In this document: piece after piece, positions 14,743 through 35,930 of the stretch
Layout: each line of letters begins with the position of its first letter
Position numbering within the stretch: the first letter of the stretch is position 1
Assembly: GCA_023129235.1 (NCBI GenBank)
Contig: JAGMCN010000034.1
Span: forward strand, 1-38,015
Direction: 5' to 3'
DNA: 38,015 nt
Origin: a candidate division WOR-3 bacterium
GTDB lineage: Bacteria; Hydrothermota; UBA3073; JACQXS01
Made by a program: the position numbers and the translations under genes
Notes under the pieces: generated by a model
Databases searched by the model: none
What the model saw: only the letters and a program-made list of their open reading frames with translations
Told to the model about the DNA's origin: nothing

Positions 14743-14787
14743 TTGACATCTTGTATTTTCAGGATACATCTTAAAGACTTAAGATGT
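14743..14787 (+). promoter_or_regulatory. Candidate promoter of the polysaccharide locus with overlapping 9-bp perfect inverted repeat
   Basis: TTGACA at 14743-48; ACATCTTAA-AGAC-TTAAGATGT at 14766-14787. Confidence 0.4.
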
Positions 14788-17391: not shown

Positions 17392-17712
17392 AATCTGTTT
17401 ATTAAATAGGTATATATCTGAATAACTTAGCTATCATACAGTAAATGGTTAACAAAGTCAAACAAGTGGTAAATGTATTTGCTGGAGATAAAGTAGAATA
17501 TCTTTCTATTGAGAAGTTTGATGCAATCTTAAGAGATAGATATATTTCTCCGTAAATCAAAGTTCCCATATATTTGACAGCTTTTTGGCCGGCAAACGAG
17601 AGAATATTAGGCATATGCTGAGGACTTTGCTCAATGACTCAATCATCCAATAAAGTGTTAACTAATAACCTGAAGGTCAAGGAAGAAGAATTAAAGAAAG
17701 CACTCTAATCGT

Positions 17713-18504
17713 ATGAAGAAAATTATTTCAAGAAGTAATTCAACGAGAGTATTTGGAAAAGAATATGCCTTATCTTACGATTATTTTTATCAGGATAAAG
17801 ACTACGAAAAAGAATGCGATTTTATTGAGAGCATTTTCAAGAAGTTTTCAGGTAATGTAAAGACAATCCTGGATTTGGGATCTGGGACAGGTGGGCATGC
17901 CTTGATTTTAGCCAAGCGAGGTTATTATGTTATGGGAGTGGACCGTTCTAAAGAGATGCTTGAGATAGCCAAGAGTAAAGCGAAGAAAGAAAACCTTTCT
18001 ATAGAATTTATTCATGGGAATATAACTGATATTGATTTACATCAGAAATTTGACGCTATAATTTCTATGTTTGCGGTGATAAGCTATCAAACTACTAATT
18101 CTGCACTTGCAGGAGGTTGTAAAGTAGCAAGTAAGCATTTAGTCTCAGATGGATTATTTCTTTTTGACTGCTGGAATGGCTCTGCAGTTCTTACTGAAAA
18201 ACCAACTGTGCGTGTCAAGAAAGTAGAGTTAAAGGATAACAAAAAGATAATAAGGTTTACAGATCCTATTCTAAACACCATGAATCACACTGTAGAAACC
18301 CGATTCAAGATCTGGAAGATAGAGAACGATCATTTAATTGACGAGACCAACGAATCTCACTTTATGCGGTTTTTCTTCCCTCAAGAAATCAGGTACTTTC
18401 TTGAAATAGCAGGTTTTTCGGAAGTAGAATTTTGTCCTTTTCTTGAATTGGAAAAGACATTAACAGAACACGATTGGAATATGGCAGTAATAGCCAGGAG
18501 GTAA
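17713..18504 (+). CDS. Class I SAM-dependent methyltransferase, TylM1/DesVI-like (candidate NDP-aminosugar N-methyltransferase)
   Basis: YDYFYQDKDYEKEC, LDLGSGTGGH, GVDRSKEML and FDAIISMF motifs. Confidence 0.8.
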   Translation: MKKIISRSNSTRVFGKEYALSYDYFYQDKDYEKECDFIESIFKKFSGNVKTILDLGSGTGGHALILAKRGYYVMGVDRSKEMLEIAKSKAKKENLSIEFIHGNITDIDLHQKFDAIISMFAVISYQTTNSALAGGCKVASKHLVSDGLFLFDCWNGSAVLTEKPTVRVKKVELKDNKKIIRFTDPILNTMNHTVETRFKIWKIENDHLIDETNESHFMRFFFPQEIRYFLEIAGFSEVEFCPFLELEKTLTEHDWNMAVIARR

Positions 18505-18508
18505 TTTT

Positions 18509-18913
18509 ATGTCTATTGAATGGATAAAAGATGGAGAACAAGTATTAGCAGTAATTATTCCGTTTGATTATAATCCATCAAAAACAGAATTTATAACCCC
18601 GCTTGATTACAAACAACAACTTGGATTTATTGTGTATGAAAGTGGAGAATCTATCACACCACATCTTCATATTCCTATGAATAGAAATTTGATTGGAACA
18701 TCTGAAGTTCTTTTTATAAAATCAGGAAAGGTCAAAGTAGATTTATACACAAAAGATAAAAAATTAGTGGCAACGAGAACTTTAAATCAAGGTGATATAA
18801 TACTATTGGTTAGCGGTGGACACGGGTTTAGAATGCTGAAAGACACTATTATGTTGGAAGTAAAACAGGGTCCATATATTGGGGTAGAAGAAAAAGAGCG
18901 ATTTAATTCATGA
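18509..18913 (+). CDS. Cupin-fold protein of polysaccharide loci
   Basis: PHLH..SEVLFIKSG..GDIILLVSGGHGF..EVKQGPY cupin motifs; ATGA overlap with the next gene. Confidence 0.75.
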   Translation: MSIEWIKDGEQVLAVIIPFDYNPSKTEFITPLDYKQQLGFIVYESGESITPHLHIPMNRNLIGTSEVLFIKSGKVKVDLYTKDKKLVATRTLNQGDIILLVSGGHGFRMLKDTIMLEVKQGPYIGVEEKERFNS

Positions 18914-20019
18914 TACAGGTAAATGAGCCGCTAATTGGTGAGAAAGAATTACAATATGTTACCGAATGTTTAAAGACTGGTTGGATCTCTTCTGCCGGTA
19001 AATTTATAAAAGAATTTGAAGAAAAGTGGGCAGCGTATTGTGGCATGAAATACGGTGTTGCTGTAAGCAATGGGACTACTGCTTTGCAAATTGCCATAGG
19101 ATGCCTTGATTTAGAGCCAGGTGATGAGGTTATAATGCCCACTTTCACTATTATATCTTGTGCCCTTGCGGTTATCTATAGTGGTGGCAAACCAGTCCTT
19201 GTAGATTCTGACCCAAGAACATGGACAATAGATGTTTCTCGGGTTGAGGACAAAGTTACCTCCAGAACCAGGGCGATTATGCCCGTGCATATCTATGGTC
19301 ATCCCTGCGATATGAAGCCAATTCAGGAATTGGCAGGGAAATATAAGCTGGTCATCATAGAAGATGCAGCTGAAGCCCACGGCGCAGAATATAAAGGTAG
19401 AAAATGTGGTGGGCTTGGAGATATTAGTTGTTTTTCTTTTTATGCGAACAAAATCATTACTACTGGGGAAGGTGGAATGGTACTTACAAATAATGAAGAA
19501 TATGATGAAAGGGCAAAGTCTTTAAGAAACCTGTGTTTCAGGAACGATAGACGCTTTTATCATACGGAATTGGGCAGTAATTTCAGGTTAACTAACCTTC
19601 AGGCAGCCATTGGGATTGCTCAACTTGAACGAATTGATGAACTTGTGGAAAAGAAAAGATGGATAGGACATAGTTATAATGAAAAATTGAAAGATATCCC
19701 TTGGCTGATTCTCCCTATTGAGGAATCTTGGGCAAAAAATGTTTACTGGATGTATGGGATTGTGTTGGATGAAAATATGGGGATGGATGCAAAAGGATTT
19801 GCGAGACGATTGCTTGAACATGGTGTGGATACACGGCCATTCTTTTTGGGGATGCATGAACAGCCTGTTTTCCATGAGATGGGGCTTTTTAGAGATGAGC
19901 ATTATCCAGTAACTGAGCAAATTGCACGACAGGGGCTTTACTTGCCATCTGGGCTTACACTAACAGAAGATCAGATAGACGAAATAGCCAAACGGATCAA
20001 AGAAATTTTAACGAAATGA
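18910..20019 (+). CDS. per: DegT/DnrJ/EryC1/StrS aminotransferase, GDP-perosamine synthase-like
   Basis: GWISSAG, SNGTTAL, PVHIYGHP, EDAAEAHGA, SFYANKIITTGEGG (PLP lysine) and GLYLPSG motifs. Confidence 0.85.
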   Translation: MIQVNEPLIGEKELQYVTECLKTGWISSAGKFIKEFEEKWAAYCGMKYGVAVSNGTTALQIAIGCLDLEPGDEVIMPTFTIISCALAVIYSGGKPVLVDSDPRTWTIDVSRVEDKVTSRTRAIMPVHIYGHPCDMKPIQELAGKYKLVIIEDAAEAHGAEYKGRKCGGLGDISCFSFYANKIITTGEGGMVLTNNEEYDERAKSLRNLCFRNDRRFYHTELGSNFRLTNLQAAIGIAQLERIDELVEKKRWIGHSYNEKLKDIPWLILPIEESWAKNVYWMYGIVLDENMGMDAKGFARRLLEHGVDTRPFFLGMHEQPVFHEMGLFRDEHYPVTEQIARQGLYLPSGLTLTEDQIDEIAKRIKEILTK

Positions 20020-21467
20020 AATTAGAAGCTTCTGATATCAAGAAAAAAGCTATTAAATCTGTGAAATGGACAGCCCTTATGGAAATTGTCTCTCGTTCTA
20101 TCCAGCCTATTGTTGTACTAATTCTTGCTCGACTTTTAGCACCAGCAGAGTTTGGTGTTGTTGGTGTGGCAATGATAGTTATTGGACTTGCGCGGATATT
20201 TCAAGACTTTGGACTTGGGAAGACCTTAATCCAGCGAGAGACAGAGATAGATAAGTCAGCAAATATAATCTTCTGGACGAATTTGACGTTATCACTCTTT
20301 CTGTATTTTATACTTTTTATAACTGCACCTTTACTTTCTCAATTTTTCCACGAACCGAAGGTAATAGATGTAATTAGAGTTTTATGTTTACAGATTATTT
20401 TTTTCAGTCTTATATCAGTACATCAATCGTTATTTCAACGGAAATTTCAATTTAAACAACTCTTCCTTATTAGATTATTCTCAGCCATTGTCCCTGGTTG
20501 TGTATCAATTCCTCTGGCATTATCTGGTTATGGTGTATGGTCGTTAGTCTGGGGAACTCTTGCTGGTACTGCTGTTCAGGTTTTGCTTTTCTGGAGAAAT
20601 AGTCCCTGGCGACCTAAATTAAGTTTTGATTTTCAATTAGCAAGGCAATTATTAGGATTTAGTAGTTGGGTTGTCTTGGAAGCATTCTTGGGTTGGTTAA
20701 TTGTATGGGGAGATTCCATAGTTCTCGGTCATTTTCTGGGGGTGAAAGAACTCGGAGTATATCGTGTGGGAGTAACCTTTCTTACGCTTGTTTTTGGTAT
20801 CTTTTTTAGTCCTATATTGCCAGTTGTTTATTCGATTTTTTCTAGATTGCAATCTAATTTATCCGAATTGAAACAATTCTTTCTTAAAATAACTCAATTG
20901 ATAGCAGCAATTTCCTTGCCTATCGGTCTTGGGTTAGCTATATCAGCAAAGTCCATTGCATTAGTCATATTCGGTCGGATGTGGTTGGGAATTGAAATTG
21001 TTATTTTAATTTTGGCAATCTCCGAATCCGTAGCTTGGCTCGTAGCCCATAATCATGAGGCATATAGAGCTATTGGCAGACCAGATATAAACGTAAAACT
21101 TCTCATATTATCTGTTATTTGTTTTCTTCCTGCTTATATATTGGCTGCTCCTCATGGACTTTTTGTATTTTGTTTAGTAAAGTCCGGGGTTGTTATGCTT
21201 ACCATGTTTTTTCATCTTTTTGTAGCCAATAAAGTCTTGCACTTACCATTTACTTACTTATGGAAACTTATTCGGATACCCTTGGTTGCGGCAATACCAA
21301 TGGGATTCGCAATTTACGGTATTACTAATGTAATAAATACATATAGTTGGTTCAGCTTGATTTCAAGTATAATAAGTGGTGGTATTTTTTATCTATTAAC
21401 TCTCTGGATGATAAAGAAAGATTTTGTTAAATGGAGTTTCCGACAGCTGATGGAGATGGCAAGGTAA
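20016..21467 (+). CDS. wzx: Wzx flippase (WzxC-like lipopolysaccharide biosynthesis protein)
   Basis: LARLLAPAEFG, DFGLGKTLIQR, GYGVWSLVWG and GVKELGVY motifs; many TM helices. Confidence 0.9.
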   Translation: MKLEASDIKKKAIKSVKWTALMEIVSRSIQPIVVLILARLLAPAEFGVVGVAMIVIGLARIFQDFGLGKTLIQRETEIDKSANIIFWTNLTLSLFLYFILFITAPLLSQFFHEPKVIDVIRVLCLQIIFFSLISVHQSLFQRKFQFKQLFLIRLFSAIVPGCVSIPLALSGYGVWSLVWGTLAGTAVQVLLFWRNSPWRPKLSFDFQLARQLLGFSSWVVLEAFLGWLIVWGDSIVLGHFLGVKELGVYRVGVTFLTLVFGIFFSPILPVVYSIFSRLQSNLSELKQFFLKITQLIAAISLPIGLGLAISAKSIALVIFGRMWLGIEIVILILAISESVAWLVAHNHEAYRAIGRPDINVKLLILSVICFLPAYILAAPHGLFVFCLVKSGVVMLTMFFHLFVANKVLHLPFTYLWKLIRIPLVAAIPMGFAIYGITNVINTYSWFSLISSIISGGIFYLLTLWMIKKDFVKWSFRQLMEMAR

Positions 21468-21513
21468 ACATGGAAGATAGGATAAGTATTAGGTTTAAGG
21501 AACTCTTGTTAAT

Positions 21514-22328
21514 AAAGGAAATCTTTTAGAGTTGTCAAATGTAGTCAAGATAATAGAAAAAAGTGAACCTGACGAAATCTATAATTTATCTGCCTAAAGT
21601 TCTGTGAAATTATCTTTTAACCAACCGATAGAAACTCTCGAATTCAATATACTTAGTGTGGCAAATTTATTAGAAGGCATAAGAGTTGTCAATCCTAAAA
21701 TAAATTTTTATCAGGCGTCAACCAGTGAAATATTTGGCAAGGTAAAAAAAGAATTTTTACCCGTAAATGAAGACTCTCTATTTAATCCTGTAAGTACCTA
21801 TGGAATATCAAAAGCTACAGCTCACTGGATTACTAAAAACTATAGAGAAGCTTATGGTTTGTTTGCAGTTTGTGGAATCCTTTTTAACCACGAAACTACA
21901 CTTAGAGGTAAAATTTTTGTTACGAAAAAATCCTTAATAGTGCTATTAAAATTAGCAGAGGTTTGGCTGATAATTTGATACTGGGAAATTTGAAGGTTTA
22001 TAGAGATTGGGGATACGCCCCTGAGTATGTAAAGGCAATGTGGCTAATGTTACAACAGAATAAACCACGTGATTATATTATCTGCTCCGGAGAAGCTCAT
22101 AGTTTAGAAGAATTTACAAAGGAAGTATTTAAAAAACTAAATTTAGATTTCAAGAAATTTATAAAGATAGATAAGACCCTTTATAGACCTGTAGAATTAG
22201 AAATTATTTATGGGGACAACACAAAAGCAAAGGAACTTTTAGGATGGCAATATAATATGACTTTTGAACAGTTGATAGATACGCTTGTAAAAGACGAAAT
22301 TGAATACATGAACTGGAAGTTGCATTAA
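21514..22328 (+). pseudogene. gmd: GDP-mannose 4,6-dehydratase pseudogene
   Basis: N-terminal GxxGQDG region absent; in-frame stop TAA at 21595-97 (PDEIYNLSA*SSV, normally Q); frameshift in the A6 run at 21925-30; YQASTSE, YGISK, GILFNHE and RDWGYAPEYV still recognisable. Confidence 0.9.
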
Positions 22329-22331
22329 AAA

Positions 22332-23558
22332 ATGATTAAGGTCTTATTCACAACTCCTGTTCTTGAACATCCTGCGGCAGGAGGTCCTCAACTCCGTATT
22401 GAGAATTCTATTAAGGCGTTGAGTAAAGTTTCAGAATTGCATATCATATCAAGAGCACGTCTTGCTTCTATTGGTGGAATGGATGCACAAAGGTTTTACG
22501 AGAGCTATTGTAAAAAGTTTCTTTACGTTCCCTCTGCCAAGCGACTCTCAAACAATAGATATATGCGAAAGATTCAAAGAACATCAAGAGGATTTTTGAG
22601 TCAAGATTGCAAGTTCATTCTTCAATATGCCGCAAGACATTCCATTAATGTGATTTGGTTTGGGTATGGTAATATTTCATTTGATTTAATCTGCAAAATT
22701 AAAAAGAATCGGTATGATATCCAAGTTGTTTGTGATACCGATAGTGTTTGGTCCAGATTTATCTTGAGGGGACTGCCGTATGAGGAATCTCTCATCAGGA
22801 AACTCAAAATATACACAGCAGGAAAAAAGAAAGAAAGAGAAGAGCAAGTATTGGTAAATTTAGCGGATATTACAACAGCCGTTTCTGATATAGATGCACA
22901 ATATTATCGTTCTATTACAAACGTTCCAGAAAAGATTCAACTCTTTTCAAATGTTCTTGATATTAAGGAGTACAATAAAAAGCCAGAACCACCTAAAGAT
23001 ATAAAACGACCAGCGATATATCTTGCGGGAACATTTAGTCCGAAAAGTCCAATGGACAAAGCAGCTTGGTGGATTATTAAAGATGTGCTACCAATCCTTA
23101 AAAAAGCAATTCCCAACATACATTTTTATATCATAGGTAGGGGGTCGAATCACACTTTTTCTAACGTAAATGATCCGAATATTACTATTACGGGAAAATT
23201 GCCATCTGTACTTCCATATCTGTGTAATGTGGATGTATCGATTGTTCCACTGAGATTTGAATCAGGAACGCGGTTTAAAATCTTGGAGGCAGGTGCTTGT
23301 GATATACCTGTTATATCAACTACTTTGGGCGCTGAGGGGCTACCTGTTACCCATGGGAAAGATATATTGGTTGCGGATTCACCTGAGGAGTTTGCTAATT
23401 CTGTTATAAGGTTAATTCAGGATAAAAATCTATCTTCGCAATTGGCGGAGAATCTCCGTACTTTAGTTCGTTCAAAATTTAGCATCGAACATCTTGAGAT
23501 TGAGGCAGGGAACATTTTGGAGAAACTAAATTGCCACTATGACAAAGAATTTCTCTAA
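22332..23558 (+). CDS. Glycosyltransferase family 4
   Basis: IVPLRFESGTRFKILEAGACDIPVISTTLGAEGL motif. Confidence 0.88.
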   Translation: MIKVLFTTPVLEHPAAGGPQLRIENSIKALSKVSELHIISRARLASIGGMDAQRFYESYCKKFLYVPSAKRLSNNRYMRKIQRTSRGFLSQDCKFILQYAARHSINVIWFGYGNISFDLICKIKKNRYDIQVVCDTDSVWSRFILRGLPYEESLIRKLKIYTAGKKKEREEQVLVNLADITTAVSDIDAQYYRSITNVPEKIQLFSNVLDIKEYNKKPEPPKDIKRPAIYLAGTFSPKSPMDKAAWWIIKDVLPILKKAIPNIHFYIIGRGSNHTFSNVNDPNITITGKLPSVLPYLCNVDVSIVPLRFESGTRFKILEAGACDIPVISTTLGAEGLPVTHGKDILVADSPEEFANSVIRLIQDKNLSSQLAENLRTLVRSKFSIEHLEIEAGNILEKLNCHYDKEFL

Positions 23559-23607
23559 TTTTATTGCAAGCTGGAGTATTTGGTGTTTACAATATTAGGA
23601 GTTGCCA

Positions 23608-24975
23608 ATGACGGAAATACTTTATGGGATCCTCAGCATCATCTTTATGGTGGGTGGCATTGCGGTTGGGAAAATTAGGTTTGGATCATATATCTTTAAC
23701 CCGCCCGGCTTATACAGTCTTATTTGGGGCATTGGGCTTATCGGTCTCAATTTTAGAATATCAAGTGAATTTTATCCACTAAGCCCTCAGGCAAATAATA
23801 TTTTCTTTGTAGCTTGGTTTTTCTTCCTTCTGGGGGTAACTTCTTTTGGCCATCTCGCATGTACTTTTCAGGCAAGAAAGAACCAACTTAGTGAGAGTAT
23901 AGAACAAATAAAGAAATTTTATTTAGTATCTTTGAGTACTTCTATCCTTTTTTTGCTTGTAATGTTGTTCCATATATTGTCCTATGTTAGCATTTATCAA
24001 TATATTATGTTGGCACCGATGTATAGATTAGCGTATTTTTATGCCGACCTTCCGGGTGCAGAAATTTACGCATTATTCCCTTATTCTGGAGCATTCTATA
24101 ATTTAATTGTTTACCCTCTTCTTTTAATATCTGCTATTTATGGTGCCTGTTATGCAAACATTGTTAACCCAAAATGGATACTCTCATATTTACCAATAGG
24201 AGGTGCAATGATATGGTCCATGATTACTCTTGGTCGATTTCCTGTCTTTATTGTGGGAAGTATCTACTTGTTTGCCTGGATGTTCACGGAGAGAAAAAAA
24301 GTTTGGGGAGGAAAAACTCTCCGAATAGGACTATTAATAGGAATTTCTATATTATTTGTCACTTTTTTAGAAAATATACGATTAGGAGAGATGAGAGAAA
24401 TCACAAAATCTTATGCTTATAGCGCGTCTGGAATGAAAGTGCCTTATCTCATAATGAATCCTGTTTATTCTCAATATGGAGGATTGGTACTATTTTCTGT
24501 ATGTCTGCCAGAAACAAGATTCAGAGAGTCTTATTATGGAGGGATTACTTTCAAGGAGTTCCTATGGATTAGAGGTATTGTTATCAGACACATATTGGGA
24601 GACAAAGATTATCGATTCAATCCAGATGCTCTCGTTGATTTGCAAGAAGGTGCCAAGTACATAGGTAATAACATAAAAACGAACGCCTTTCAAACTTATT
24701 TACACGCTCCTTGGCATGATTTTAGGTATTTAGGTATAATTATGTTTCCTTTTATTATGGGTTTTCTTTGTTGTCTGCCATATAGATTTTTTCTTAGAAC
24801 AGGTAGTTTTTACATGTTTGGTTTATATTTATATTTAATTGTAGTATTTATTTTAGTATCAACTATAGTATGGCGACTCTCAGATATTTTTTATTCTTTG
24901 CCTATTTTTTATCTCGTGGCAGGTTATATTTTATGGAAATGGAATAGAAGTCATCCTAAGAAATTAAGGGATTGA
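23608..24975 (+). CDS. wzy: O-antigen/capsule polymerase Wzy
   Basis: About 10-11 hydrophobic segments, periplasmic loop with TNAFQTYLHAPWHDF, position in a wzx/wzc locus; AGGAG RBS before ATG 23608. Confidence 0.78.
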   Translation: MTEILYGILSIIFMVGGIAVGKIRFGSYIFNPPGLYSLIWGIGLIGLNFRISSEFYPLSPQANNIFFVAWFFFLLGVTSFGHLACTFQARKNQLSESIEQIKKFYLVSLSTSILFLLVMLFHILSYVSIYQYIMLAPMYRLAYFYADLPGAEIYALFPYSGAFYNLIVYPLLLISAIYGACYANIVNPKWILSYLPIGGAMIWSMITLGRFPVFIVGSIYLFAWMFTERKKVWGGKTLRIGLLIGISILFVTFLENIRLGEMREITKSYAYSASGMKVPYLIMNPVYSQYGGLVLFSVCLPETRFRESYYGGITFKEFLWIRGIVIRHILGDKDYRFNPDALVDLQEGAKYIGNNIKTNAFQTYLHAPWHDFRYLGIIMFPFIMGFLCCLPYRFFLRTGSFYMFGLYLYLIVVFILVSTIVWRLSDIFYSLPIFYLVAGYILWKWNRSHPKKLRD

Positions 24976-24983
24976 GGTATTTT

Positions 24984-26156
24984 ATGAAAATTGTATTCTT
25001 ATCTCCCATAAGACATTTAGCGAGCATACCATTTGCCATGGAAAGTATCCAGGCATTTGCAGATAGAGAGTATAGGGTAGATGTAATAACCTCTTCCGCC
25101 CTTGAATTAAAATATAAACCGAATCATTTAAAAATTCGTGTTATTACTTATCCGGATAATAAAGGATTATTTGATTATCTATTTATTTCTTTTTTTAAAA
25201 AAGTTTACTTATATCAAAAACACAACTCGTATGATATAGTTATTGGAATGTCTCAGAAAGGCTTAATTGCTGCAACCTTACTTATGTTCCGAAAACCTGT
25301 AATTTATTTTAACGATGAACTATGGACCGGATATGAAGGAAGGAAATGGTACAAAAAAATATATAACAGAGTTTGGAAGTGTATTGAACAGTTTTGCAAT
25401 CGGCGGGTTACATTCTCTGTTAATCAGGACAATCTTCGTGCAGATTTACTTGCCAAGATTAATAAAATTCCCCGTGAATCTATTATACTTTTACCAAATT
25501 CATTTTCAGGAAAAGCCAGCCGAAAGGAAAGCAGTTATCTTCAAAAAAAATTTCACATTCCAGAAAAGTCCAATACTCTTTTATCTATTGGGGCAATCCC
25601 GGTGAACTCAGGATATTTAGAATTGGCTGAGGAAGCAAAAAAATGGCCGGAGGAATTCAGATTGGTGTTTCATATGCGACATCCTGTAAGTCCTCAAAAG
25701 TACTCGTATGCATATAGAACTCTGGAGTCAGCGGATAACAAGCATGTTTATGCTTCCGTATCGCCTGTGTCTTATGAAATTTTAGTGGATATTGTAGCAT
25801 CTTCTAAAATTGGGTTAGCTTTATATGGGAACAGAAACTCCAGAGACCTTAATGCTCTATTCATAGGCTATTCTTCCGGAAAAGTGAATTTATATCTTAA
25901 ACTGGGGATTCCTGTGATTGCACAAGACTTTCCAGGATTTAAGTGGATAGAAGAATCTGGAGCAGGTATTTGTGTGTCTGAATATACAGAAGTTTTTGGT
26001 GCTGCTAAGGATATAATGGCCAATTATAATTTCTATAGTGAAAATGCTCTTAAAACATTTAAAGAACGGCTTAGTTTTGACTGTTCGTTTGAAATCATAG
26101 AAAACAAGGTTAGACGAATTTCAACTAATAAAAATCTGAAAAGGAGAGTTAAATGA
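24984..26156 (+). CDS. GT-B fold glycosyltransferase
   Basis: SSKIGLALY..SSGKVNLYLKLGIPVI motif; GAGG RBS before ATG 24984. Confidence 0.75.
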   Translation: MKIVFLSPIRHLASIPFAMESIQAFADREYRVDVITSSALELKYKPNHLKIRVITYPDNKGLFDYLFISFFKKVYLYQKHNSYDIVIGMSQKGLIAATLLMFRKPVIYFNDELWTGYEGRKWYKKIYNRVWKCIEQFCNRRVTFSVNQDNLRADLLAKINKIPRESIILLPNSFSGKASRKESSYLQKKFHIPEKSNTLLSIGAIPVNSGYLELAEEAKKWPEEFRLVFHMRHPVSPQKYSYAYRTLESADNKHVYASVSPVSYEILVDIVASSKIGLALYGNRNSRDLNALFIGYSSGKVNLYLKLGIPVIAQDFPGFKWIEESGAGICVSEYTEVFGAAKDIMANYNFYSENALKTFKERLSFDCSFEIIENKVRRISTNKNLKRRVK

Positions 26157-27547
26157 AAGCTTTAGAGAGAGAATTGAGAGTATTTATTCCAGAGAATTTT
26201 CCATTAGAAAACAAAGGAGAAGAAGCGATACTTCGAGGTATTGAAGATATGTTATCACAAAGTGGCTTGAGTGTTCTATTTTGTACACTTCCAACCACAT
26301 GCAACAGAAAAAAAATAAAAGGTAATGTAATAATGTATCCCCACGAATGGATACATTCTTCCTGGTATTATTTGACATTTCAACCAGGTTTTTCATTTCC
26401 TGCTTTATACTCAACACTCTGTTGTATTTGTAGACATATCTTAAACAGGTTTTTACCTAATTGGATAAAGATTATGCCTTTGCCTCTGCGATTGCTAATA
26501 TGGTTAGAGAAAGACGTTCCTTGGCTTCGGAAGTTGTTTCCTGAGCGGTATGAAATGCTACAAGAGCTAAAAAAGATGGATATTGTTATCGCAGGACACG
26601 ATGGAGTTTTTCGTCCTAGGGAGTATCATATCCTGAATTTCATGAGAGATATGGGACTGGTGTACGGAATTATAGGCTGTAGTTTAAAACCAGGTAATCC
26701 TAAAATCGCAAGGATGTATGAAAAGAGCTTTTCTAATAGCTTATTTTTATATTTCAGGGAGAAATTCAGCTATGAGTGGGTACAAGAGCAGTTACCCAGT
26801 CTCAAAAAATCTGCAATAGCTCCCGATCCAGCTTTTGCCATGAGACCCGTTGAGACAAAAGAAGTAGATTCTATTATTAAAAAAGAAAAGTTGGATAACA
26901 TCTTCTTAATGCCAGTGGTAATGATGACCGTTACTGAGAATGTTATGATAAAGAGATTTGCATTTAAGGATAAACAAAAAGTCATAAATAAAATAAGAGC
27001 CCATAGATATCTTATGGCAAATTTGGTTCAGCATATTATAGATGAATGGAATGCCTCGATTATTTTTCTACCTCACTCTACAGGTATTACCGATGAATTA
27101 GAGGACAGAAGGATTGCAAAGGAAATTATGAAGTTAGTTAAGAATCCTATGAATAGGGTAAAAATAATATACAATGAAGAATATGGGGCGAGGCAATTGA
27201 AAGGATTGATTGGTAGGGCTGATTTATTGATTGGTGAGAGAGTTCATTCAATTATCGGTGCTGTGGGTGTCAATACACCATTTGTCTGCATTGGCTCAAA
27301 AAATGATTTTCGGATAACCGGGATTATAGGCAACATGTGCCAATGTAGTGACTGCCTCTACTATCTGGAGTCCGCTGCTCTTGAAACATTATGTGCATTT
27401 GCAGATAGCATCTGGAAAAGAAAGGAGGCTATTAGAGAGAGACTTAAGAATGTTTCATCAGAGATGCAGGCACAATTAAGTGGGATAGGAAACGAAATTT
27501 TAGCCTATGTAAAAAGTGGGATGAAAATAAATGAGAGGTCTTTCTGA
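26153..27547 (+). CDS. Polysaccharide pyruvyl transferase family protein (WcaK/CsaB-like)
   Basis: NKGEEAIL, FREKFSY, PDPAF, FLPH and IGERVHSIIGA..TP motifs. Confidence 0.85.
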   Translation: MKALERELRVFIPENFPLENKGEEAILRGIEDMLSQSGLSVLFCTLPTTCNRKKIKGNVIMYPHEWIHSSWYYLTFQPGFSFPALYSTLCCICRHILNRFLPNWIKIMPLPLRLLIWLEKDVPWLRKLFPERYEMLQELKKMDIVIAGHDGVFRPREYHILNFMRDMGLVYGIIGCSLKPGNPKIARMYEKSFSNSLFLYFREKFSYEWVQEQLPSLKKSAIAPDPAFAMRPVETKEVDSIIKKEKLDNIFLMPVVMMTVTENVMIKRFAFKDKQKVINKIRAHRYLMANLVQHIIDEWNASIIFLPHSTGITDELEDRRIAKEIMKLVKNPMNRVKIIYNEEYGARQLKGLIGRADLLIGERVHSIIGAVGVNTPFVCIGSKNDFRITGIIGNMCQCSDCLYYLESAALETLCAFADSIWKRKEAIRERLKNVSSEMQAQLSGIGNEILAYVKSGMKINERSF

Positions 27548-28799
27548 TAGAATAGAGAAAAATTTAACAATTGAAGCAGTTGTTCGCTCAGAATTATGCT
27601 TGGGATGTGGAACATGTGTAGCTCTTTGTCCTAATAATGCTATTGTTTTGCGTATTCGTACCAAGAAAAAAGTTTACATGGCTGAAATTGTTGGAAGCTG
27701 TGAGGAGTGTGGACTTTGCTATCGTGTGTGTCCGGGGAAGGGTGTTCCCTTGCTAAGAATGGGGGGAAAATTATTCTCTACTTCAATGCAATCTTCTGTT
27801 GGACGATATATTGCTTGTTACTCAGGTTATGCCGTGGATCAGAATGAAAGATTCCATAGTTCTTCCGGAGGATTTGTAACTGCGATTCTCAAAGAGCTTC
27901 TCCAAAAGAAAGAGATTGATGGGGCTATTGTAACAAGATTTAATCCTGAAAGATTAGAGGCTTATGCAGTTATTGCTAAAAGCGAAGAGGAAATTGGGAA
28001 ATGTAGGGGCTCTAAATACTGTCCTGTACCAGTAAATATTATTTTGCGTAGAGTGCTTGCAGAGAGAAATAAGAATAAATATGTTTTTGTTGGACTTCCA
28101 TGTCATATTCAAGGGCTTCGATTAGCTCAGGATGTCATGCCTATTTTAAGGAAAAAAATTATACTTGCACTTGGACTCTTCTGTGGAGGCATGTTAGGAT
28201 TAGAAGCTACCCGACAGGTGCTGAGACATAGACATATAACTCCTAAACAAGTATCGAAATTATCCTTTCGTGGAAGTGGATGGCCGGGAGCGATGAAGAT
28301 TGAAACAGTGGACACAAGAACTTATTCACTCTCATATCCAGAATATTTCAAAGGGCTTGGATACTTAGAGCCGAATCGATGTCGGCTATGCATTGACCCT
28401 CTTGCAGAGTTAGCAGATATTGGTTTTGGAGATGCCTGGCTTCCACGTTATGCAAATGATTCTGATGGATATTCTATCGTAATTATCAGAGGATTGGAAG
28501 GGGAGAGTATATTTCAACAGACAATTAAGTCAATGAGAATTATAGCAGAGCAAATTTCTATGGAGGATGTTTTGAAATCTCAAAATGGAAATATAGTTAT
28601 TAAAAGAGCAACTATGGGAGTGCGTCGGGTTCGGTATGCGATATTATTCAAGAAGCTCCCAACATATGATCTGAAATTCCACCTGAGCCTAAAGGCAGTT
28701 TATAAAGATCTAAGAATGTATTTAGGGCAACTCATAAAGATGTGGAGTAACGAATTGAGAAGTTACTTTAATGATAGGGTGTCAAAAAAGGGGAAATAA
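27531..28799 (+). CDS. Coenzyme F420 hydrogenase/dehydrogenase beta-subunit (FrhB)-like Fe-S flavoprotein
   Basis: Two CxxCxxCxxxCP motifs; SSGGFVT, GSKY, VGLPCHI, LGLFC, FRGSGWPG, RCRLCID and ADIGFGDAW. Confidence 0.88.
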   Translation: MRGLSDRIEKNLTIEAVVRSELCLGCGTCVALCPNNAIVLRIRTKKKVYMAEIVGSCEECGLCYRVCPGKGVPLLRMGGKLFSTSMQSSVGRYIACYSGYAVDQNERFHSSSGGFVTAILKELLQKKEIDGAIVTRFNPERLEAYAVIAKSEEEIGKCRGSKYCPVPVNIILRRVLAERNKNKYVFVGLPCHIQGLRLAQDVMPILRKKIILALGLFCGGMLGLEATRQVLRHRHITPKQVSKLSFRGSGWPGAMKIETVDTRTYSLSYPEYFKGLGYLEPNRCRLCIDPLAELADIGFGDAWLPRYANDSDGYSIVIIRGLEGESIFQQTIKSMRIIAEQISMEDVLKSQNGNIVIKRATMGVRRVRYAILFKKLPTYDLKFHLSLKAVYKDLRMYLGQLIKMWSNELRSYFNDRVSKKGK

Positions 28800-28804
28800 A
28801 TAAT

Positions 28805-29902
28805 ATGAACTTAATGTCCGAGAAGCTTACTCAAGCTATCAAAAATCCTAAAAGAGTATTTTATAGATTTAAAGAGAAATTGACTAAGAAAACATGTGAG
28901 GAGTCTTTAATAGATGAATCAATTAGATATTTTCCTTCAAAAGAAGAAGGAATTAAAATTTTCTTTGTGGAATCAAAATATGATTATGGAGATAAAAATA
29001 GAGGATTAAGTTTTGAAGAAAACAATTTCCTGCATACATTGGTCCACTCGTGCTATGAAACTATTGTTTTCGACCCTATTCTTACGATGAAAAAATATGG
29101 AAAAAAAACGATGAATCGCATACTTATAGAGAGCGTCTATCGTTGGAACCCAGATATTGTATTCTTTGTATTGTTTAAAGATGAGATTGAGTTGGATACT
29201 CTGATAGAAATTAGAGATAGTATGGGAATAAAAACCTTAAATTGGTTTTGTGATGACCACTGGAGATTTGATAATTTCTCAAAAATCTATGCTTCCTTTC
29301 TCAGTTATGTAATAACTACTTATAAACCAACAGTAGAGAAATATAAATTAATCGGGGTGAAAAATGTGATATTGTCCCAATGGGCGTGTAATCATTACTT
29401 GTATAAAAGATTGAAGCTTCCTTATCTATACGATGTGAGTTTTGTAGGGCAACCTCACGGGGATAGATATAAAATAATAAGAAGGATTAGAAAAGCAGGA
29501 ATAAAAGTTGAAACTTTTGGGTATGGGTGGCCGAATGGAAGAGTTACAACTTACGAGATGATAAAAATATTCAACCAGACAAAGATAAATCTAAATTTAA
29601 GTAATGCATCGAGAGGAAAAATAAATCAGATAAAGGGAAGAGATTTTGAGATACCAGGATGCGGAGGACTTATGATTACCGGATATAATGAAAATTTGAA
29701 AGATTATTACCGGATAGGAAAAGAAATGGTATGTTATAACACTGTAGATGATTTAATCGAACTATTAAGACATTATCTCAAAAATGATGAAGAGAGAGAA
29801 ACTATAAGAGAAGCAGGTTATAAAAGGGTGTCGGCAGAACATACATACGAGGAAAGATTTCAGAAGATATTTAAAAAGACATTGGAAGATAGAAACTTGT
29901 GA
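28805..29902 (+). CDS. CgeB-like glycosyltransferase (Glyco_trans_1_2)
   Basis: WFCDDHWRF, YDVSFVG, KINLN, KGRDFEIPGCGG and EHTYEERF motifs. Confidence 0.85.
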   Translation: MNLMSEKLTQAIKNPKRVFYRFKEKLTKKTCEESLIDESIRYFPSKEEGIKIFFVESKYDYGDKNRGLSFEENNFLHTLVHSCYETIVFDPILTMKKYGKKTMNRILIESVYRWNPDIVFFVLFKDEIELDTLIEIRDSMGIKTLNWFCDDHWRFDNFSKIYASFLSYVITTYKPTVEKYKLIGVKNVILSQWACNHYLYKRLKLPYLYDVSFVGQPHGDRYKIIRRIRKAGIKVETFGYGWPNGRVTTYEMIKIFNQTKINLNLSNASRGKINQIKGRDFEIPGCGGLMITGYNENLKDYYRIGKEMVCYNTVDDLIELLRHYLKNDEERETIREAGYKRVSAEHTYEERFQKIFKKTLEDRNL

Positions 29903-31035
29903 AAATTCTTATCACGGTTGAATTTTACTACCCTAAAATTGGAGGAGTGGAGTTATGGACTCAAACTATTGCTGAATACTTTGCATCAAGGAGACATAAA
30001 GTTTATATTGCAACAACTTATTTGGAGAATAGGAAAACAAGAAACTTAAATCGTGTAAATATTTTAGGATTTAATATTAAGGGTAATAAAGTCAAAGGGA
30101 TAAAAGAATTAACAAAAGGTGATATAAAAAGATATAAAAAATTACTTTTGGAAGGAGGATTTGATATTATTCTCCAGCACGCGGCTCAAACATGGCATAC
30201 GGATTTAATGTTTGACATCATTGACAAAGTAAGAGCTAAAAAGATTTTAATTCCATGTGGCTACTCGGGATTATCTACACCATTGCGAAAATTAATATAC
30301 TATAAGTATTTTAAAAAACTACCAAAATACTTACGCAAATACGATCTTTTAATCTATCACTGTGAGGGATATAGAGACTATAAGTTTGGGGAAAGACATG
30401 GTTTAAACAAATATAAGTTAATCCCGATTGGCATTAACTTAAAAGAATTTCAAGAGGTATATAAAAGCGATAAAATAAAATTTAGAGAAAAGTATAAAGT
30501 TAGTAGTAAATATATAATTCTCAATGTATCAAACCATTATAAGCTTAAAGGTCACTATTTCGCGATAAAAACTTTGGAAAAGTTATTAAGAGAAGGGATG
30601 GATGTTTCTCTATTAATTATAGGAAACCCGGCTATTGGCACAAAGCAAAATTGCTATCATGCTTGTCTTAAATATTCGCAAATCAATGAGAAATTTAAGG
30701 TACTTACTGATATGCCGAGGAAAGATGTAATTAAAGCTTATACGGAAAGCGATGTGTTTTTACTCAGTTCTAAAATTGAATACTTCCCTGTAGTGATATT
30801 GGAATCAATGGCGGGAAGTCTACCTTATGTATCTACGAATATCGGCTGCGTGAGAAATATGGGTAAAGGAATAATTGTCCACGATCCAAGAGGAGCCACT
30901 GAAGCAATTAGACAAGTACTTTCTGACAAGAAGTTAAGGGATAGTATAGTAAAACATAACAAAGGTAAAATAGAACACGAGTATGAAATTAACGATGTTT
31001 TAAAGCTTTACGAGAAAGCCCTTATAGAAGCTTGA
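29899..31035 (+). CDS. Glycosyltransferase family 4
   Basis: GTG start; YYPKIGGVE, KLKGH and SDVFLLSSKIEYFPVVILESMAGSLPYVST motifs. Confidence 0.88.
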   Translation: MKILITVEFYYPKIGGVELWTQTIAEYFASRRHKVYIATTYLENRKTRNLNRVNILGFNIKGNKVKGIKELTKGDIKRYKKLLLEGGFDIILQHAAQTWHTDLMFDIIDKVRAKKILIPCGYSGLSTPLRKLIYYKYFKKLPKYLRKYDLLIYHCEGYRDYKFGERHGLNKYKLIPIGINLKEFQEVYKSDKIKFREKYKVSSKYIILNVSNHYKLKGHYFAIKTLEKLLREGMDVSLLIIGNPAIGTKQNCYHACLKYSQINEKFKVLTDMPRKDVIKAYTESDVFLLSSKIEYFPVVILESMAGSLPYVSTNIGCVRNMGKGIIVHDPRGATEAIRQVLSDKKLRDSIVKHNKGKIEHEYEINDVLKLYEKALIEA

Positions 31036-31061
31036 TTTCATCAGTTTTTTTAATCATTAGT

Positions 31062-32105
31062 ATGTTTTCAGTATTAATGTCTGTGTATCATATTGAAAAG
31101 CCAAATTATTTGGATCTTGCGTTCAAATCTCTTTACGAGCAAACATTTAAAGACTTTCAAATTGTGCTTGTATGTGATGGACCTTTAACAAAAGGAGTAA
31201 ATGCTCAAATAGAAAAGTGGAAATCTGTATTTAAAGAAAAGTTATTAGTTGTAAGGTTAAAAGAAAATAAAGGATTAGGAATTGCCTTGCAGGAAGGACT
31301 TAAACATTGCAAGTATGATATAGTTGCCAGAATGGATACAGACGATTATTGCGACCCTACCCGTTTAGAAAAGCAATATAACTTTTTAAAAAGTCATTTA
31401 TCTATTGAGGTAGTGAGTTGTGCATTAAAAGAATTTGTAGAAACACCCGATAATGTAATTTCTGTAAAACCAGTATATGAGACACATAAAGAGATTGAGA
31501 AAAAGTTTTGGTTTAGAAATCCTATAAATCATCCTGCTGCAATGTTCAGAAAGAAAACAGTTCTAAAAGTAGGCGGATATAAAGATTTGCTGTTTCTGGA
31601 AGACTATTATTTATGGAGCAGAATGTGGGTAAATAAATCAAAATTTTGGAATCTTACCGAACCACTTTATTACCAACGTATTGATAAAAATTTCTATAAA
31701 CGACGAGCTGGGATTACGCAATTGAAAAATGAAATTTTTATAAGGCAGTATTTATATAAAAACCATAAAATAGGTCTTCCCAAATTTCTTGCATCAATAG
31801 TTATTCAAGTATTCTTGAGGTCAACACTTCCTGGAATCCGCCGTTTCTTCTGGTCTAAAATCAGAAAAAAGTATAAAGGATACAAAAACATTAACAAACG
31901 CAATGATGAAAATGATAGAATTGAGCGAGGAAAAAAGAAAACAAGTGAAGAAAAGGGGAAGAAAGTCTTAAAAGAATTTGATGAAAAGATTATTATTAAA
32001 AAGTACTTGGAAGTTCTGCCAGAGATTAGTGAATTAGATAATAGGGGAAAGATGAAACCACAGATTTCACAAAATTACATTGATTCAAAAGCACAGGAGT
32101 TGTAA
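31062..32105 (+). CDS. Glycosyltransferase family 2 (AmsE-like) with aberrant C-terminal extension
   Basis: FSVLMSVY, VCDGPL, NKGLGIAL, ARMDTDD, NHPAAMFRK and EDYYLW motifs; the last ~75 aa derive from a relic of another gene plus a repeat. Confidence 0.85.
   Translation: MFSVLMSVYHIEKPNYLDLAFKSLYEQTFKDFQIVLVCDGPLTKGVNAQIEKWKSVFKEKLLVVRLKENKGLGIALQEGLKHCKYDIVARMDTDDYCDPTRLEKQYNFLKSHLSIEVVSCALKEFVETPDNVISVKPVYETHKEIEKKFWFRNPINHPAAMFRKKTVLKVGGYKDLLFLEDYYLWSRMWVNKSKFWNLTEPLYYQRIDKNFYKRRAGITQLKNEIFIRQYLYKNHKIGLPKFLASIVIQVFLRSTLPGIRRFFWSKIRKKYKGYKNINKRNDENDRIERGKKKTSEEKGKKVLKEFDEKIIIKKYLEVLPEISELDNRGKMKPQISQNYIDSKAQEL
31873..32030 (+). pseudogene. 3' relic of a deleted GT4 glycosyltransferase
   Basis: An alternative frame reads IKDTKTLTNAMMKMIELSEEKRKQVKKRGRK, then shifts to KVLKEFDEKIIIKKYLEV, a typical GT4 C-terminal helix pair. 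Confidence 0.65.
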
Positions 32106-32293
32106 TGTTAGAAAAGACGAAAATATCAAAGACAAATATTGAATGTTATAATGCGTGGAGAGTGAATGGATTAAGCGTAAGTCCATTTGTATTTGTGATT
32201 AAAAAATTATCGAAGATTTTGCAATTTCCTTTTTTCAACCGCTTACAGAGTCTGTCGCAGACTCAACGAGCGACAGATGAATCCGTCAGTTGA
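32105..32293 (+). pseudogene. Probable 3' relic of a WcaE-like GT2 glycosyltransferase
   Basis: KTNIECYNAWRVNGL..FVIKKLSKILQF resembles C-termini of WcaE-like GT2 proteins (from recall, not searched); the rest of the ORF runs through repeats. Confidence 0.45.
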
Positions 32294-32374
32294 CGGAATA
32301 GACACAGATGCAATCTAAATGAGAAACAATCTCAAGTAATGTATAAAGCTACAGACTCGCATGAAATAAAAATG

Positions 32375-32401
32375 TTGACTTTCATATTTTTAATATATGA
32401 T
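32375..32401 (+). promoter_or_regulatory. Candidate internal promoter for gmd-fcl
   Basis: TTGACT (32375-80), 15 nt spacer, TATGAT (32396-401), 8 nt before the ATG; no SD sequence. Confidence 0.35.
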
Positions 32402-32409
32402 TAAACAAG

Positions 32410-33456
32410 ATGAGAAAGAAAGCTCTAATCACGGGAATAACAGGTCAGGATGGTTCTTATTTAGCAGAGTTCTTACTTTCAAAGGGATATAAGGTTCACG
32501 GAATTATAAGAAGAACAAGCACTTTCAATACATCCCGTATAGACCATATTTATCAGGACCCTCATGCCCCTGGGACGAAATTGTTCTTGCATTACGGTGA
32601 CCTTATGGATAGTGAACAGATAAATGACATAATTTACAATATAAAACCCGACGAAGTTTATCACTTAGGTGCCCAAAGTCATGTAAGAGCGAGTTTTGAT
32701 ATGCCTGAATACACTGCTAATGTCACGGCTCTTGGAACAACCCGAATTTTAGAAGCAATAAGAAGAAGCGGAAATAAAATAAAGTTCTATCAAGCGTCAA
32801 GTAGTGAGATGTTTGGCGCGTCTAAACCGCCTCAAAATGAAGAATCGCCTTTTAAACCACGCAGTCCCTATGCCTGCAGTAAGATCTATGCTTATTGGAT
32901 GGTAGTAAATTATCGTCAGGGTTACGGTCTTTTTACCTCTAATGGTATCTTATTTAACCATGAAAGTCCTCGTCGGGGAGAAACTTTTGTAACTCGCAAA
33001 ATCACACGTGCCATCGCTTCGCTTCTCGCCAAAAAACAAGATTGTCTTTATCTGGGCAATCTTGAAGCCAAGCGAGATTGGGGATTCGCACCTGAGTATG
33101 CAGAGTTTATGTATAAGATGCTCCAGAATAGTAAGCCGGACGATTTTGTCATAGGTACGGGTGAAACCCATTCTATAAAGGAATTTGTGGAAGAAGCTTT
33201 CTCTTATATTGGCTTGGATTGGAGAAAATATGTAAAGATTGATCCCCGATATCTCAGGCCCACAGAAGTGGAAGAATTAGTGGCTGATTCAAGAAAGGCA
33301 AAGAAAATTTTAGGATGGGAGCCTAATATACGATTTAAAGAATTGGTGAAGATAATGGTGGATACAGATATGCGAAAAATGGGATTAACTCCAATAGGGG
33401 AAGGAGATAAAATCTTGAAAGAAAAGTTTCCACAGAGATGGTGGAAGGTAGATTAG
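32410..33456 (+). CDS. gmd: GDP-mannose 4,6-dehydratase
   Basis: [52 protein letters not shown] and RDWG motifs. Confidence 0.97.
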
Positions 33457-33468
33457 TATAGTTTATAA

Positions 33469-34431
<963 letters not shown>

Positions 34432-34460
34432 AATTAAAACTTATAAGCCACGAAAACACT

Positions 34461-34490
34461 GGTAGGGACGTTCAATTGAACGCCCCTACC
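34461..34490. repeat. GTAG-type REP-like palindrome
   Basis: GGTAGGGACGTTCAATTGAACGCCCCTACC; arms identical to the copy at 4767-4794. Confidence 0.85.
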
Positions 34491-34686
34491 ATAATATAAT
34501 TTCTTTTGTGTACCTTAGTGTTTTGGGAATTTTGTTGCAGACTCCGTGAGTGGCATTTTGTAAAAATTGCATTGGTTTTGCAAAAACTGCATACATAGAT
34601 AGACACAACTTGTTTTCAGTGGGTTTCTTAACCTGCCAGACAGACCTCCCTATAAAAGATAGGGGACTCCCCATGAAAGATAAATC

Positions 34687-34753
34687 TTGCCGCAAAGACA
34701 CAGAAGTTGCAAAGTTTTATTTTTCCTCTGCGTTCTTCGCGTCTCTGCGGCGA
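34687..34753. repeat. Periodic imperfect inverted repeat (GCAAAG/CTCTGC units)
   Basis: TTGCCGCAAAGACACAGAAGTTGCAAAG ... CTCTGCGTTCTTCGCGTCTCTGCGGCGA. Confidence 0.7.
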
Positions 34754-34811
34754 AAATCTTTTTTCTTGACTTTGATATAACTTTTGCTATTAAATTAAAA
34801 GTGAAGGGCAG

Positions 34812-34834
34812 GTTCGCAGAATCCGTTGGACAAG
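34812..34834. repeat. ~23-bp hairpin repeat, copy 2 of 4
   Basis: GTTCGCAGAATCCGTTGGACAAG, 21/23 identical to 92-114. Confidence 0.75.
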
Positions 34835-34880
34835 TATTTTGAACAAAAGTAGAAATAATAGTTTCAAAGGATAGGTAAGG

Positions 34881-35930
34881 ATGGGATATATCTGGAAAAT
34901 ATTGCTTTCTTTTATCATAAGCTGTGCCATCCAGTATATAGTAGTTTGCCTTGCTCGCAAATTCAACTTTTTTATAGATAGGGTAGATGACAAGCCCCAG
35001 AGGTTTCATAAAGACCCTATCCCAAGAGCCGGTGGGATAGGCATTCTTGTAGGCAGTTTTATTCTGCTAACATCCTGTCCACATTCTGCGAATAAAATAG
35101 GTATAGGTATTCTTTTGATTCTATCAAGCTTGCCTTCCTTCTTGATTGGGAAGGTGGAAGATTTAAGAAATAATTTATCAGTTAAAATAAGGTTTCCTCT
35201 CTTAATCATTTCTCCTATTCTGGGAATGTTCCTTCTTGGAAATATAGTAAAGGATACAGGGATATTTACTCTCCCAATGATAATTGCAATTCCATTTACA
35301 TTATTTGCGGTTATAGGGATGACCAATGCTATAAATATCATAGATGGATTTAATGGACTTGCTTCGGGAATATCTTTAATTGCTTTTGGCTTTTTGGGGT
35401 TAGCGGCTTACATTGTTGGCGATATTGAACTTCTAAGGATAATAGGAATCTTGTCTGCTTCTTTGCTTGGCTTTTTTGTGTGGAATTTTCCAAGAGGAAG
35501 AGTATTTCTCGGAGATGGAGGAGCGTATTTTCTCGGCTTTATGCTTGCAAGCATTTCTATATTACTTGTAAATAGGAATCCACAAATATCACCATGGTTT
35601 ATTCTTGTGATTTTAGCATACCCGGTGTGGGAGGTCATATTTTCTGCGTATAGGAAAAAGATGGTAAGGAAGAAAAGCCCACTGGTATCAGATAGAGTTC
35701 ATCTACATATGTTGATATATCAACGCATTACCAAAACACACTGGAAGACATCCGTATATTTATGGATGCCCAGCGTGTTTATTGGTAGTTTAGGAATAGC
35801 ATTTTCCCGTTCAGCATTGATTTTAAGCATACTCTTGTTAATCTACATACTTTTTTATAATCTCTTCTATAATAGAATAGTAAGGTTTAAAGTGAAAAAA
35901 TTAAGAAAAATACAAAAGGTTAAGAAATAA
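34881..35930 (+). CDS. wecA: Undecaprenyl-phosphate alpha-N-acetylglucosaminyl 1-phosphate transferase (WecA/MraY family)
   Basis: PQRFHKDPIPRAGGIGI, NAINIIDGFNGLA, WNFP..VFLGDGGAY and DRVHLHMLIY motifs; many TM helices. Confidence 0.88.
   Translation: MGYIWKILLSFIISCAIQYIVVCLARKFNFFIDRVDDKPQRFHKDPIPRAGGIGILVGSFILLTSCPHSANKIGIGILLILSSLPSFLIGKVEDLRNNLSVKIRFPLLIISPILGMFLLGNIVKDTGIFTLPMIIAIPFTLFAVIGMTNAINIIDGFNGLASGISLIAFGFLGLAAYIVGDIELLRIIGILSASLLGFFVWNFPRGRVFLGDGGAYFLGFMLASISILLVNRNPQISPWFILVILAYPVWEVIFSAYRKKMVRKKSPLVSDRVHLHMLIYQRITKTHWKTSVYLWMPSVFIGSLGIAFSRSALILSILLLIYILFYNLFYNRIVRFKVKKLRKIQKVKK

Follow-up and report, generated by a model that had tools for sequence, protein, structure and literature searches.

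Lactate in ether linkage is known from many bacterial glycans, among them one with Man4Lac in Odoribacter splanchnicus (PMC12679510). MurA and MurB make such a lactyl ether by way of an enolpyruvyl ether from phosphoenolpyruvate (PEP), followed by flavin-dependent reduction, and HCAR and BciB are ferredoxin-dependent, F420-independent uses of the FrhB-type fold, with BciB reducing a vinyl C=C bond. Hager 2019 (PMC6801904) gives PEP as the donor of CsaB and Pvg1p as well, and lipid-linked acceptors for WcfO and CsaB. For Escherichia coli, Liu 2020 (PMC7685785) reports lactyl groups in O58, O69, O124, O146 and O150 and pyruvate ketals in O112ac, O149 and O156, and the gene list of its supplement names the O69 genes lar and lat (glycolactilic-acid genes, which we matched to the loci by their order), so that a link between a pyruvyl transferase gene and a lactyl ether is already in print at gene level. 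Here, we analysed a window of 38,015 nucleotides from a candidate division WOR-3 bacterium (positions 1 to 38,015 of contig JAGMCN010000034.1, assembly GCA_023129235.1), in which a pyruvyl transferase gene (PF04230-type, hereafter PT) overlaps a gene for an FrhB-like iron-sulfur (Fe-S) flavoprotein:

26153..27547, + strand: PF04230 transferase, 464 amino acids (Pfam)

27531..28799, + strand: FrhB-like Fe-S flavoprotein, 422 amino acids (Pfam PF04422, PF04432 and Fer4)

We consider it likely that this pair carries out PEP-dependent enolpyruvyl transfer followed by flavin reduction, probably giving an (R)-lactyl ether on a surface polysaccharide. For the product alone, a lactyl ether (1-carboxyethyl group), our confidence is high.

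The closest described counterparts are the E. coli pairs lar/lat of O69 and wfeO/wfeP of O124, which like the window combine a PF04230 transferase with an FrhB-like Fe-S flavoprotein in a Wzx/Wzy locus. In RefSeq records of E. coli clusters, typed by their PGAP wzx/wzy labels, the O69 order is FrhB-like gene, wzx, PT, and the O124/O164 family has wzx, the FrhB-like gene and PT, the latter intact in one fetched locus (L097; labels of this form denote fetched loci) and split in another (L096). According to Liu 2020 (PMC7685785), a frameshift in the PT gene wfeP turns the Glc4RLac of O124 into the Glc of O164. O146 and O150 also pair a transferase with a flavoreductase for lactyl ether, in the order nitroreductase, wzx, PT (wbuD/wbuE in O146, wfgF/wfgG in O150); unlike in the window, the reductase there is of the nitroreductase family and the product is (S). 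The laboratory strain E. coli ATCC 8739 carries an O146 cluster. The initial annotation had proposed that presence of the pair be set against known polysaccharide structures. The outcome agreed with that proposal: a flavoreductase was found in 4/4 lactyl clusters examined (of five known), while no annotated reductase lies beside the PT in O149, O156 and the colanic-acid wcaK region (0/3, with one hypothetical O156 reading frame not scanned). Queries from O69, O146, IAI1, O124 and glf recovered neither an O58 nor an O112ac cluster in blastn searches.

Configuration follows the reductase family in these clusters. (R)-Lactyl goes with an FrhB-like protein in 2/2 cases (O69, O124) and (S)-lactyl with a nitroreductase in 2/2 (O146, O150), a rule that was written down before the O150 and O124 loci were looked at. 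O69 Lat and O150 WfgG are 48% identical and GlcNAc is the lactylated sugar of both clusters, yet O69 has an FrhB-like protein and the R form, O150 a nitroreductase and the S form. From this contrast we infer that it is the reductase, acting on a planar intermediate, that determines the stereocentre.

Further enterobacterial loci are relevant here. Pan 2015 (PMC4616057) describes Klebsiella K8, K22, K37 and K66 as carrying PT genes but no pyruvylation and, over 79 K types, tallies nitroreductase genes twice and an 'F420 hydrogenase' gene once. The title of a reference points to (S)-carboxyethyl-GlcA in K22, whose sugar sequence K37 shares (PMC7246685). The K22 and K37 data would fit our reading. 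An untyped galF-gnd cluster of E. coli IAI1 (an O8 strain; L093:11948-20009), near-identical in 8 of 5426 genomes, has the order wzx, FrhB-like gene, PT, and is predicted to make an (R)-lactyl glycan. On the E. coli plasmid pBDSF8-3_3 (24.8 kb, rich in insertion sequences; L100:5739-13812) two near-identical PTs follow an FrhB-like gene and a nitroreductase fragment, respectively; relatives of the PT occur on further E. coli plasmids, which we read as mobile glycan-modification cassettes.

The window reductase falls with Lar and WfeO rather than with energy-metabolism FrhB. Its eight ferredoxin-motif cysteines (C23/26/29/33 and C57/60/63/67) and four core cysteines (C191, C218, C284, C287), the latter aligned with cysteines of methanogen FrhB, bear out the two ferredoxin motifs and FrhB core of the initial annotation. 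In a quick maximum-likelihood tree of 34 of 54 rows (the 20 left out were two FrhG fragments, a duplicate, a row only half filled and 16 sequences closely related to the window clade), the window protein, O69 Lar, O124 WfeO and archaeal and bacterial polysaccharide-locus proteins form a group of 24 rows with an SH-aLRT support of 98, and 10 other FrhB-family proteins, including energy-metabolism paralogues, fall outside it. The motifs SSSGG, Y[CY]PV and GDAW are common to the window reductase and Lar/WfeO, whereas FrhB-type proteins have QDGG, Y[TS] and SVG/GSV at those places; QDGG and SVGSVG are missing from the window protein. It matches E. coli Lar/WfeO-type proteins at 101-150 bits, as against 98 bits for the nearest paralogue in its own genome, and HHalign gives 99.9% over 344 columns with O69 Lar. 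Two ferredoxin motifs are present in the window reductase and one is kept in Lar/WfeO, as judged from the alignment. The AlphaFold model (pLDDT 83) matches F420-oxidoreductase subunits and HCAR in Foldseek (TM-score 0.68 to 8RIU_B), as does a phmmer search of the PDB; fold, FAD and [4Fe-4S] core are common to the window reductase, the FrhB/FpoF/Fsr modules and HCAR (5DQR). Its scores lie far below the NCBIfam cut-offs for FrhB (90.5 vs 331.5) and FpoF (87.1 vs 475). We predict that it is an (R)-specific enol-ether reductase of the Lar/WfeO type.

Recurrence of the pairing in other polysaccharide loci, mentioned in the initial annotation, was found from both sides. For the reductase side we took the best 80 of 279 relatives from GTDB genomes, spread over Bathyarchaeia, methanogens, Chloroflexota, Planctomycetota, Bacillota and other groups, and for the transferase side the best 80 of 133 metagenome loci. 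A PF04230-type gene is present in the fetched stretch of 71/80 reductase loci (70 by iterated profile, L046 by Pfam), once as a fusion, 63 times within 450 nucleotides (43 on the same strand, 20 convergent) and seven times farther away. Window-type transferase loci have an adjacent FrhB-like gene in 68/80 cases, a nitroreductase gene in two (L163, L184) and a MurB-like gene in one (L144), hence a reductase of one of the three families in 71/80; in the remaining nine the sequence ends early on one side or, in L121, a gene that reads as a reverse transcriptase interrupts. These loci are redundant, forming 29 clusters at 70% identity, 25 of them with an FrhB-linked member. The linkage is far beyond chance. 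Fusions occur in both orders, reductase-transferase in L041:441-3056 (871 amino acids) and transferase-reductase in L197-L199 (about 890 amino acids). Window-type pairs also occur in cultured organisms such as Syntrophaceticus schinkii (L031), Methanosarcina sp. Z-7115 (L017) and Parabacteroides distasonis (L086).

Among 121 genomes of the window's phylum, the reductase (E <= 1e-40) occurs in six, always linked to a PT and three times as a PT-reductase fusion; it was found in 0/2 other genomes of the window's genus. As a baseline, just 6/22 PF04230 loci of the same phylum sample have an FrhB-like or nitroreductase gene within about 1.5 kb. Tight linkage thus belongs to this transferase clade and not to PF04230 at large, and the module is patchy and probably mobile. 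The overlap of 17 nucleotides (27531-27547) lies, as first described, within the glycosyltransferase block, and both reading frames were confirmed. Its significance was rejected: the closest homologous locus (L115) has a gap of nine nucleotides, 20 of 63 adjacent pairs are convergent and wzx lies between the two genes in O69, so that order, spacing and strand vary and the overlap has no special meaning.

Two observations on the surroundings of the pair may be added. PaaK/F390-synthetase-like adenylating enzymes lie beside the reductase or PT in L014:4674-5990, L072:3585-4916 and L206:1-1292, the last two judged from sequence starts. In the genetically tractable Sinorhizobium meliloti (pSymB, L087:6905-9380) the pair stands alone, outside a polysaccharide cluster, and its reductase matches 66 Sinorhizobium plasmid records.

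The analogy with MurA and MurB that the initial annotation had drawn gains support from gene neighbourhoods. A full-length MurA gene, above the TIGR01072 cut-off, lies directly 3' of the FrhB-like gene in two Bathyarchaeia glycosylation loci (L024:7264-8532, L084:7281-8546), and a MurA fragment lies three genes beyond in L072:7791-8168. Conversely, L144:116-4004 has wzx, a window-type PT and a MurB-like gene, and its contig of 4.2 kb lacks an FrhB-like gene. Taken together, the PT with a MurB-like partner and MurA with an FrhB-like partner support an enol route. MurA and the FrhB-like protein of the Bathyarchaeia form a candidate archaeal pathway to a muramic-acid-like sugar that needs no MurB. 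The likeness to MurA/MurB is one of presumed chemistry only, i.e., enolpyruvyl transfer from PEP, with the flavin then reducing the product to an (R)-lactyl ether. The window pair is not a member of that system, with a predicted GT-B fold in place of the EPSP-synthase fold and an Fe-S FrhB fold in place of the MurB fold.

In the proposed mechanism, a sugar hydroxyl would attack C2 of PEP with loss of phosphate. With a proton then lost in place of ketal closure, a planar product would be released, either an enolpyruvyl ether or the equivalent oxocarbenium species, as with MurA. Electrons would pass from the ferredoxin-type clusters to the FrhB cluster and on to FAD, and the flavin would reduce the C=C bond in the manner of MurB, fixing the stereocentre. 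Unlike MurB, for which NADPH is the donor, the window reductase probably receives its electrons from ferredoxin or flavodoxin, and not from F420, in view of its own 2[4Fe-4S] domain, of the lack of a match to the F420 ligase family PF01996 in 9/9 genomes of the same order and of its relatives in E. coli, which does not make F420 (PMC8571402). Lactylation is placed at the UDP-sugar by Liu 2020 (PMC7685785); for the window pair, the acceptor may be a nucleotide sugar or a lipid-linked repeat unit.

Several results weigh against this reading, the placement of the transferase foremost. The window transferase belongs to PF04230 (70.3 bits, cut-off 25.3), as do WcaK, CsaB, WcfO and Pvg1p, and stays below the curated cut-offs for WcaK (TIGR04006, 30.5 vs 727) and CsaB (TIGR03609, 41.8 vs 213). 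BLAST gave no match to Lat, WfeP, WbuE or WfgG, a sequence search of the PDB returned nothing at E <= 1, and Foldseek with the AlphaFold2 model (pLDDT 93) matched generic GT-B enzymes only. A profile of the window-transferase clade scores WcaK at 173 bits and Lat-type proteins at <=39, and HHalign gives 97.6% to WcaK vs 5.4% to WfeP. Orthology to E. coli Lat/WfeP was rejected on these results. The protein is thus of a WcaK-like long subfamily, with a predicted GT-B fold and with WcaK its nearest named relative, and WcaK belongs to a ketal-bearing polymer. The function of the E. coli pair is carried over to the window pair from another lineage, and a glycan structure for an organism with a window-type transferase was not found in the accessible literature. 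Hence the route to 1-carboxyethyl sugars suggested in the initial annotation is supported by the E. coli correlation and, for this exact pair, stays conditional. Of all results, the WcaK-like placement argues most strongly against carrying the function over directly. The near-constant reductase partner of the clade, drawn from three unrelated flavoprotein families (from two in the Lat lineage), counterbalances it. The ketal clusters examined, in contrast to the window clade, have no annotated partner reductase. We predict that the window transferase is a PEP-dependent enolpyruvyl (lactyl-precursor) transferase.

The remaining points of this kind concern the reductase and the configuration rule. 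Identity between the window reductase and Lar/WfeO reaches only 25-28%, and the tree was built quickly and has long branches. No PT is nearby in 9/80 FrhB-like loci, some of which end at a contig edge, and three of the nine (L042, L077, L079) look like sugar-catabolic or other contexts, so that the clade is not exclusively linked to PTs. Neighbours of the reductase in these three are an FGGY kinase, epimerase, amidohydrolase or FAD oxidase-like gene, and the fold may serve catabolism there. The MurB-like gene of L144 stands on a single contig, scores 137.8 vs the 144.5 bits of the TIGR00179 cut-off and might be a chance neighbour. The rule linking reductase family to configuration is based on two serogroups per configuration, and the assignment of O69 as R and O146 as S is one that we take from a paper title. 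Klebsiella K8, finally, has a PT gene without pyruvate (PMC4616057).

The same product could arise by another route, in which the PT makes a cyclic pyruvate ketal and the flavoprotein opens it reductively to the lactyl ether. The WcaK-like placement would suit this, as would the ketals made by characterised PF04230 enzymes (Hager 2019, PMC6801904) and the O-4 lactyl groups of O124 and O150, which could result if a 4,6-ketal were opened. However, the replacement of the reductase by a MurB-like protein in L144 and the adjacency of MurA to the reductase in L024 and L084 point to an enol ether, and MurB provides a precedent for a flavin that reduces an alpha,beta-unsaturated carboxylate. We know of no precedent for reductive ketal opening by three unrelated flavoprotein families and regard this route as quite improbable. 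If instead the PT made an ordinary ketal, the FrhB-like protein would serve an unrelated redox step in sugar-precursor synthesis, e.g., a deoxygenation. The WcaK-like transferase, the three PT-less loci and the other sugar-modifying genes of the locus (DegT, cupin, methyltransferase) would agree with such a division of labour, which we nevertheless deem unlikely: the reciprocal linkage (71/80, 68/80) is to PTs and not to nucleotide-sugar enzymes, the two proteins are fused in both orders, a nitroreductase replaces the FrhB-like gene in both PT lineages, and genotype correlates with structure in E. coli.

A genuine F420-binding hydrogenase or dehydrogenase subunit that lies in a polysaccharide locus by chance is, in our judgement, extremely improbable. 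The best PDB and NCBIfam matches are indeed the F420-binding modules of FrhB, FpoF and Fsr; unlike these, the window reductase scores far under the cut-offs, belongs to a separate clade with other motifs, has a polysaccharide context and has no hydrogenase partner in the window. No hydrogenase or F420-biosynthesis protein was seen among the 30 window reading frames scanned, as the initial annotation had said. PF04230 is represented once and PF04432 four times in the host genome (1.7 Mb, 62% complete), and PF01996 and PF01933 have no match in this 62%-complete assembly; PF01996 matches in other families of the phylum are weak and partial. The other three PF04432 genes are elsewhere in the genome, on other contigs, among neighbours that we take, from their sequences, to be energy-metabolism genes. 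Relatives of the reductase work in E. coli, a host without F420 (PMC8571402). The role implied by the label 'coenzyme F420 hydrogenase beta subunit' was rejected on scores, tree and motifs.

Enolpyruvyl transfer and reduction to a lactyl ether, our preferred reading, would act within a set of surface polysaccharide genes, of which the following are of interest here:

14784..35930, + strand: host polysaccharide locus with SLBB/Wza-like, Wzc, methyltransferase, cupin, DegT aminotransferase, Wzx, five glycosyltransferases, Wzy, the transferase/reductase pair, Gmd, Fcl and a WecA/MraY-like initiating transferase

20016..21467, + strand: Wzx flippase (PF13440/PF01943)

23602..24975, + strand: Wzy-type repeat-unit polymerase (TIGR04370 above cut-off; 52% identical and syntenic in L115)

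24972..26156, + strand: GT4-family glycosyltransferase (PF13439), directly upstream of the transferase with an overlap of four nucleotides

The pair sits between wzy/GT4 and three more glycosyltransferases of this Wza-like/Wzc/Wzx/Wzy locus. The upstream GT4 is kept in the same position in the two closest loci (64% identical in L115, 46% in L006) and may be the enzyme that adds the acceptor sugar or else the one that transfers the sugar once lactylated. A second, broken gmd (21505-22313) lies between wzx and the first GT4. Its two pieces, in different frames, share 43-46% identity with the intact copy (32410-33456) and leave about 58 N-terminal residues unmatched, which suggests that the locus was assembled from two sources. 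The Wza-like gene (14784-15224) encodes just 146 amino acids with an SLBB domain only. Upstream, three secreted-looking proteins (6437-8083, 10303-12804, 12993-14543) end in a C-terminal domain like those of FlgD-Ig/type IX secretion system (T9SS) proteins.

In the full-text literature, which leaves out most subscription papers, we found no biochemistry of lactyl-ether formation outside peptidoglycan and no rule relating reductase family to R or S; the accessible parts of PMC8466920, PMC13139461, PMC6927306, PMC6856556 and PMC9912281 hold no gene-level information on lactyl ethers. What is added here to the published gene-level link is a WcaK-like PT lineage with the same reductase, the three-way exchange of reductases, the pairing with MurA and the archaeal spread. 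A broader proposal is put forward tentatively and with some doubt, namely that the FrhB-like clade consists of widespread F420-independent, (R)-specific enolpyruvyl-ether reductases, a 'second MurB' that is interchangeable with nitroreductases (S) and MurB, was recruited separately by at least two PT lineages and is paired with genuine MurA in Bathyarchaeia.

If our reading of the window pair is true, many capsule and O-antigen genes labelled 'coenzyme F420 hydrogenase beta subunit' would be glycan-tailoring reductases, and false signals of F420 metabolism could be removed from annotations. The presence of a reductase would shift the annotation of a 'pyruvyl transferase' from ketal to lactyl ether, its family would predict R or S, and lactyl sugars would be predicted in archaeal glycans. 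Should the clade as a whole prove to be a second MurB, lactyl-ether and muramic-acid-like sugars would be common and as yet unrecorded in methanogens, Bathyarchaeia and many anaerobic bacteria, and their chirality would be readable from the genome.

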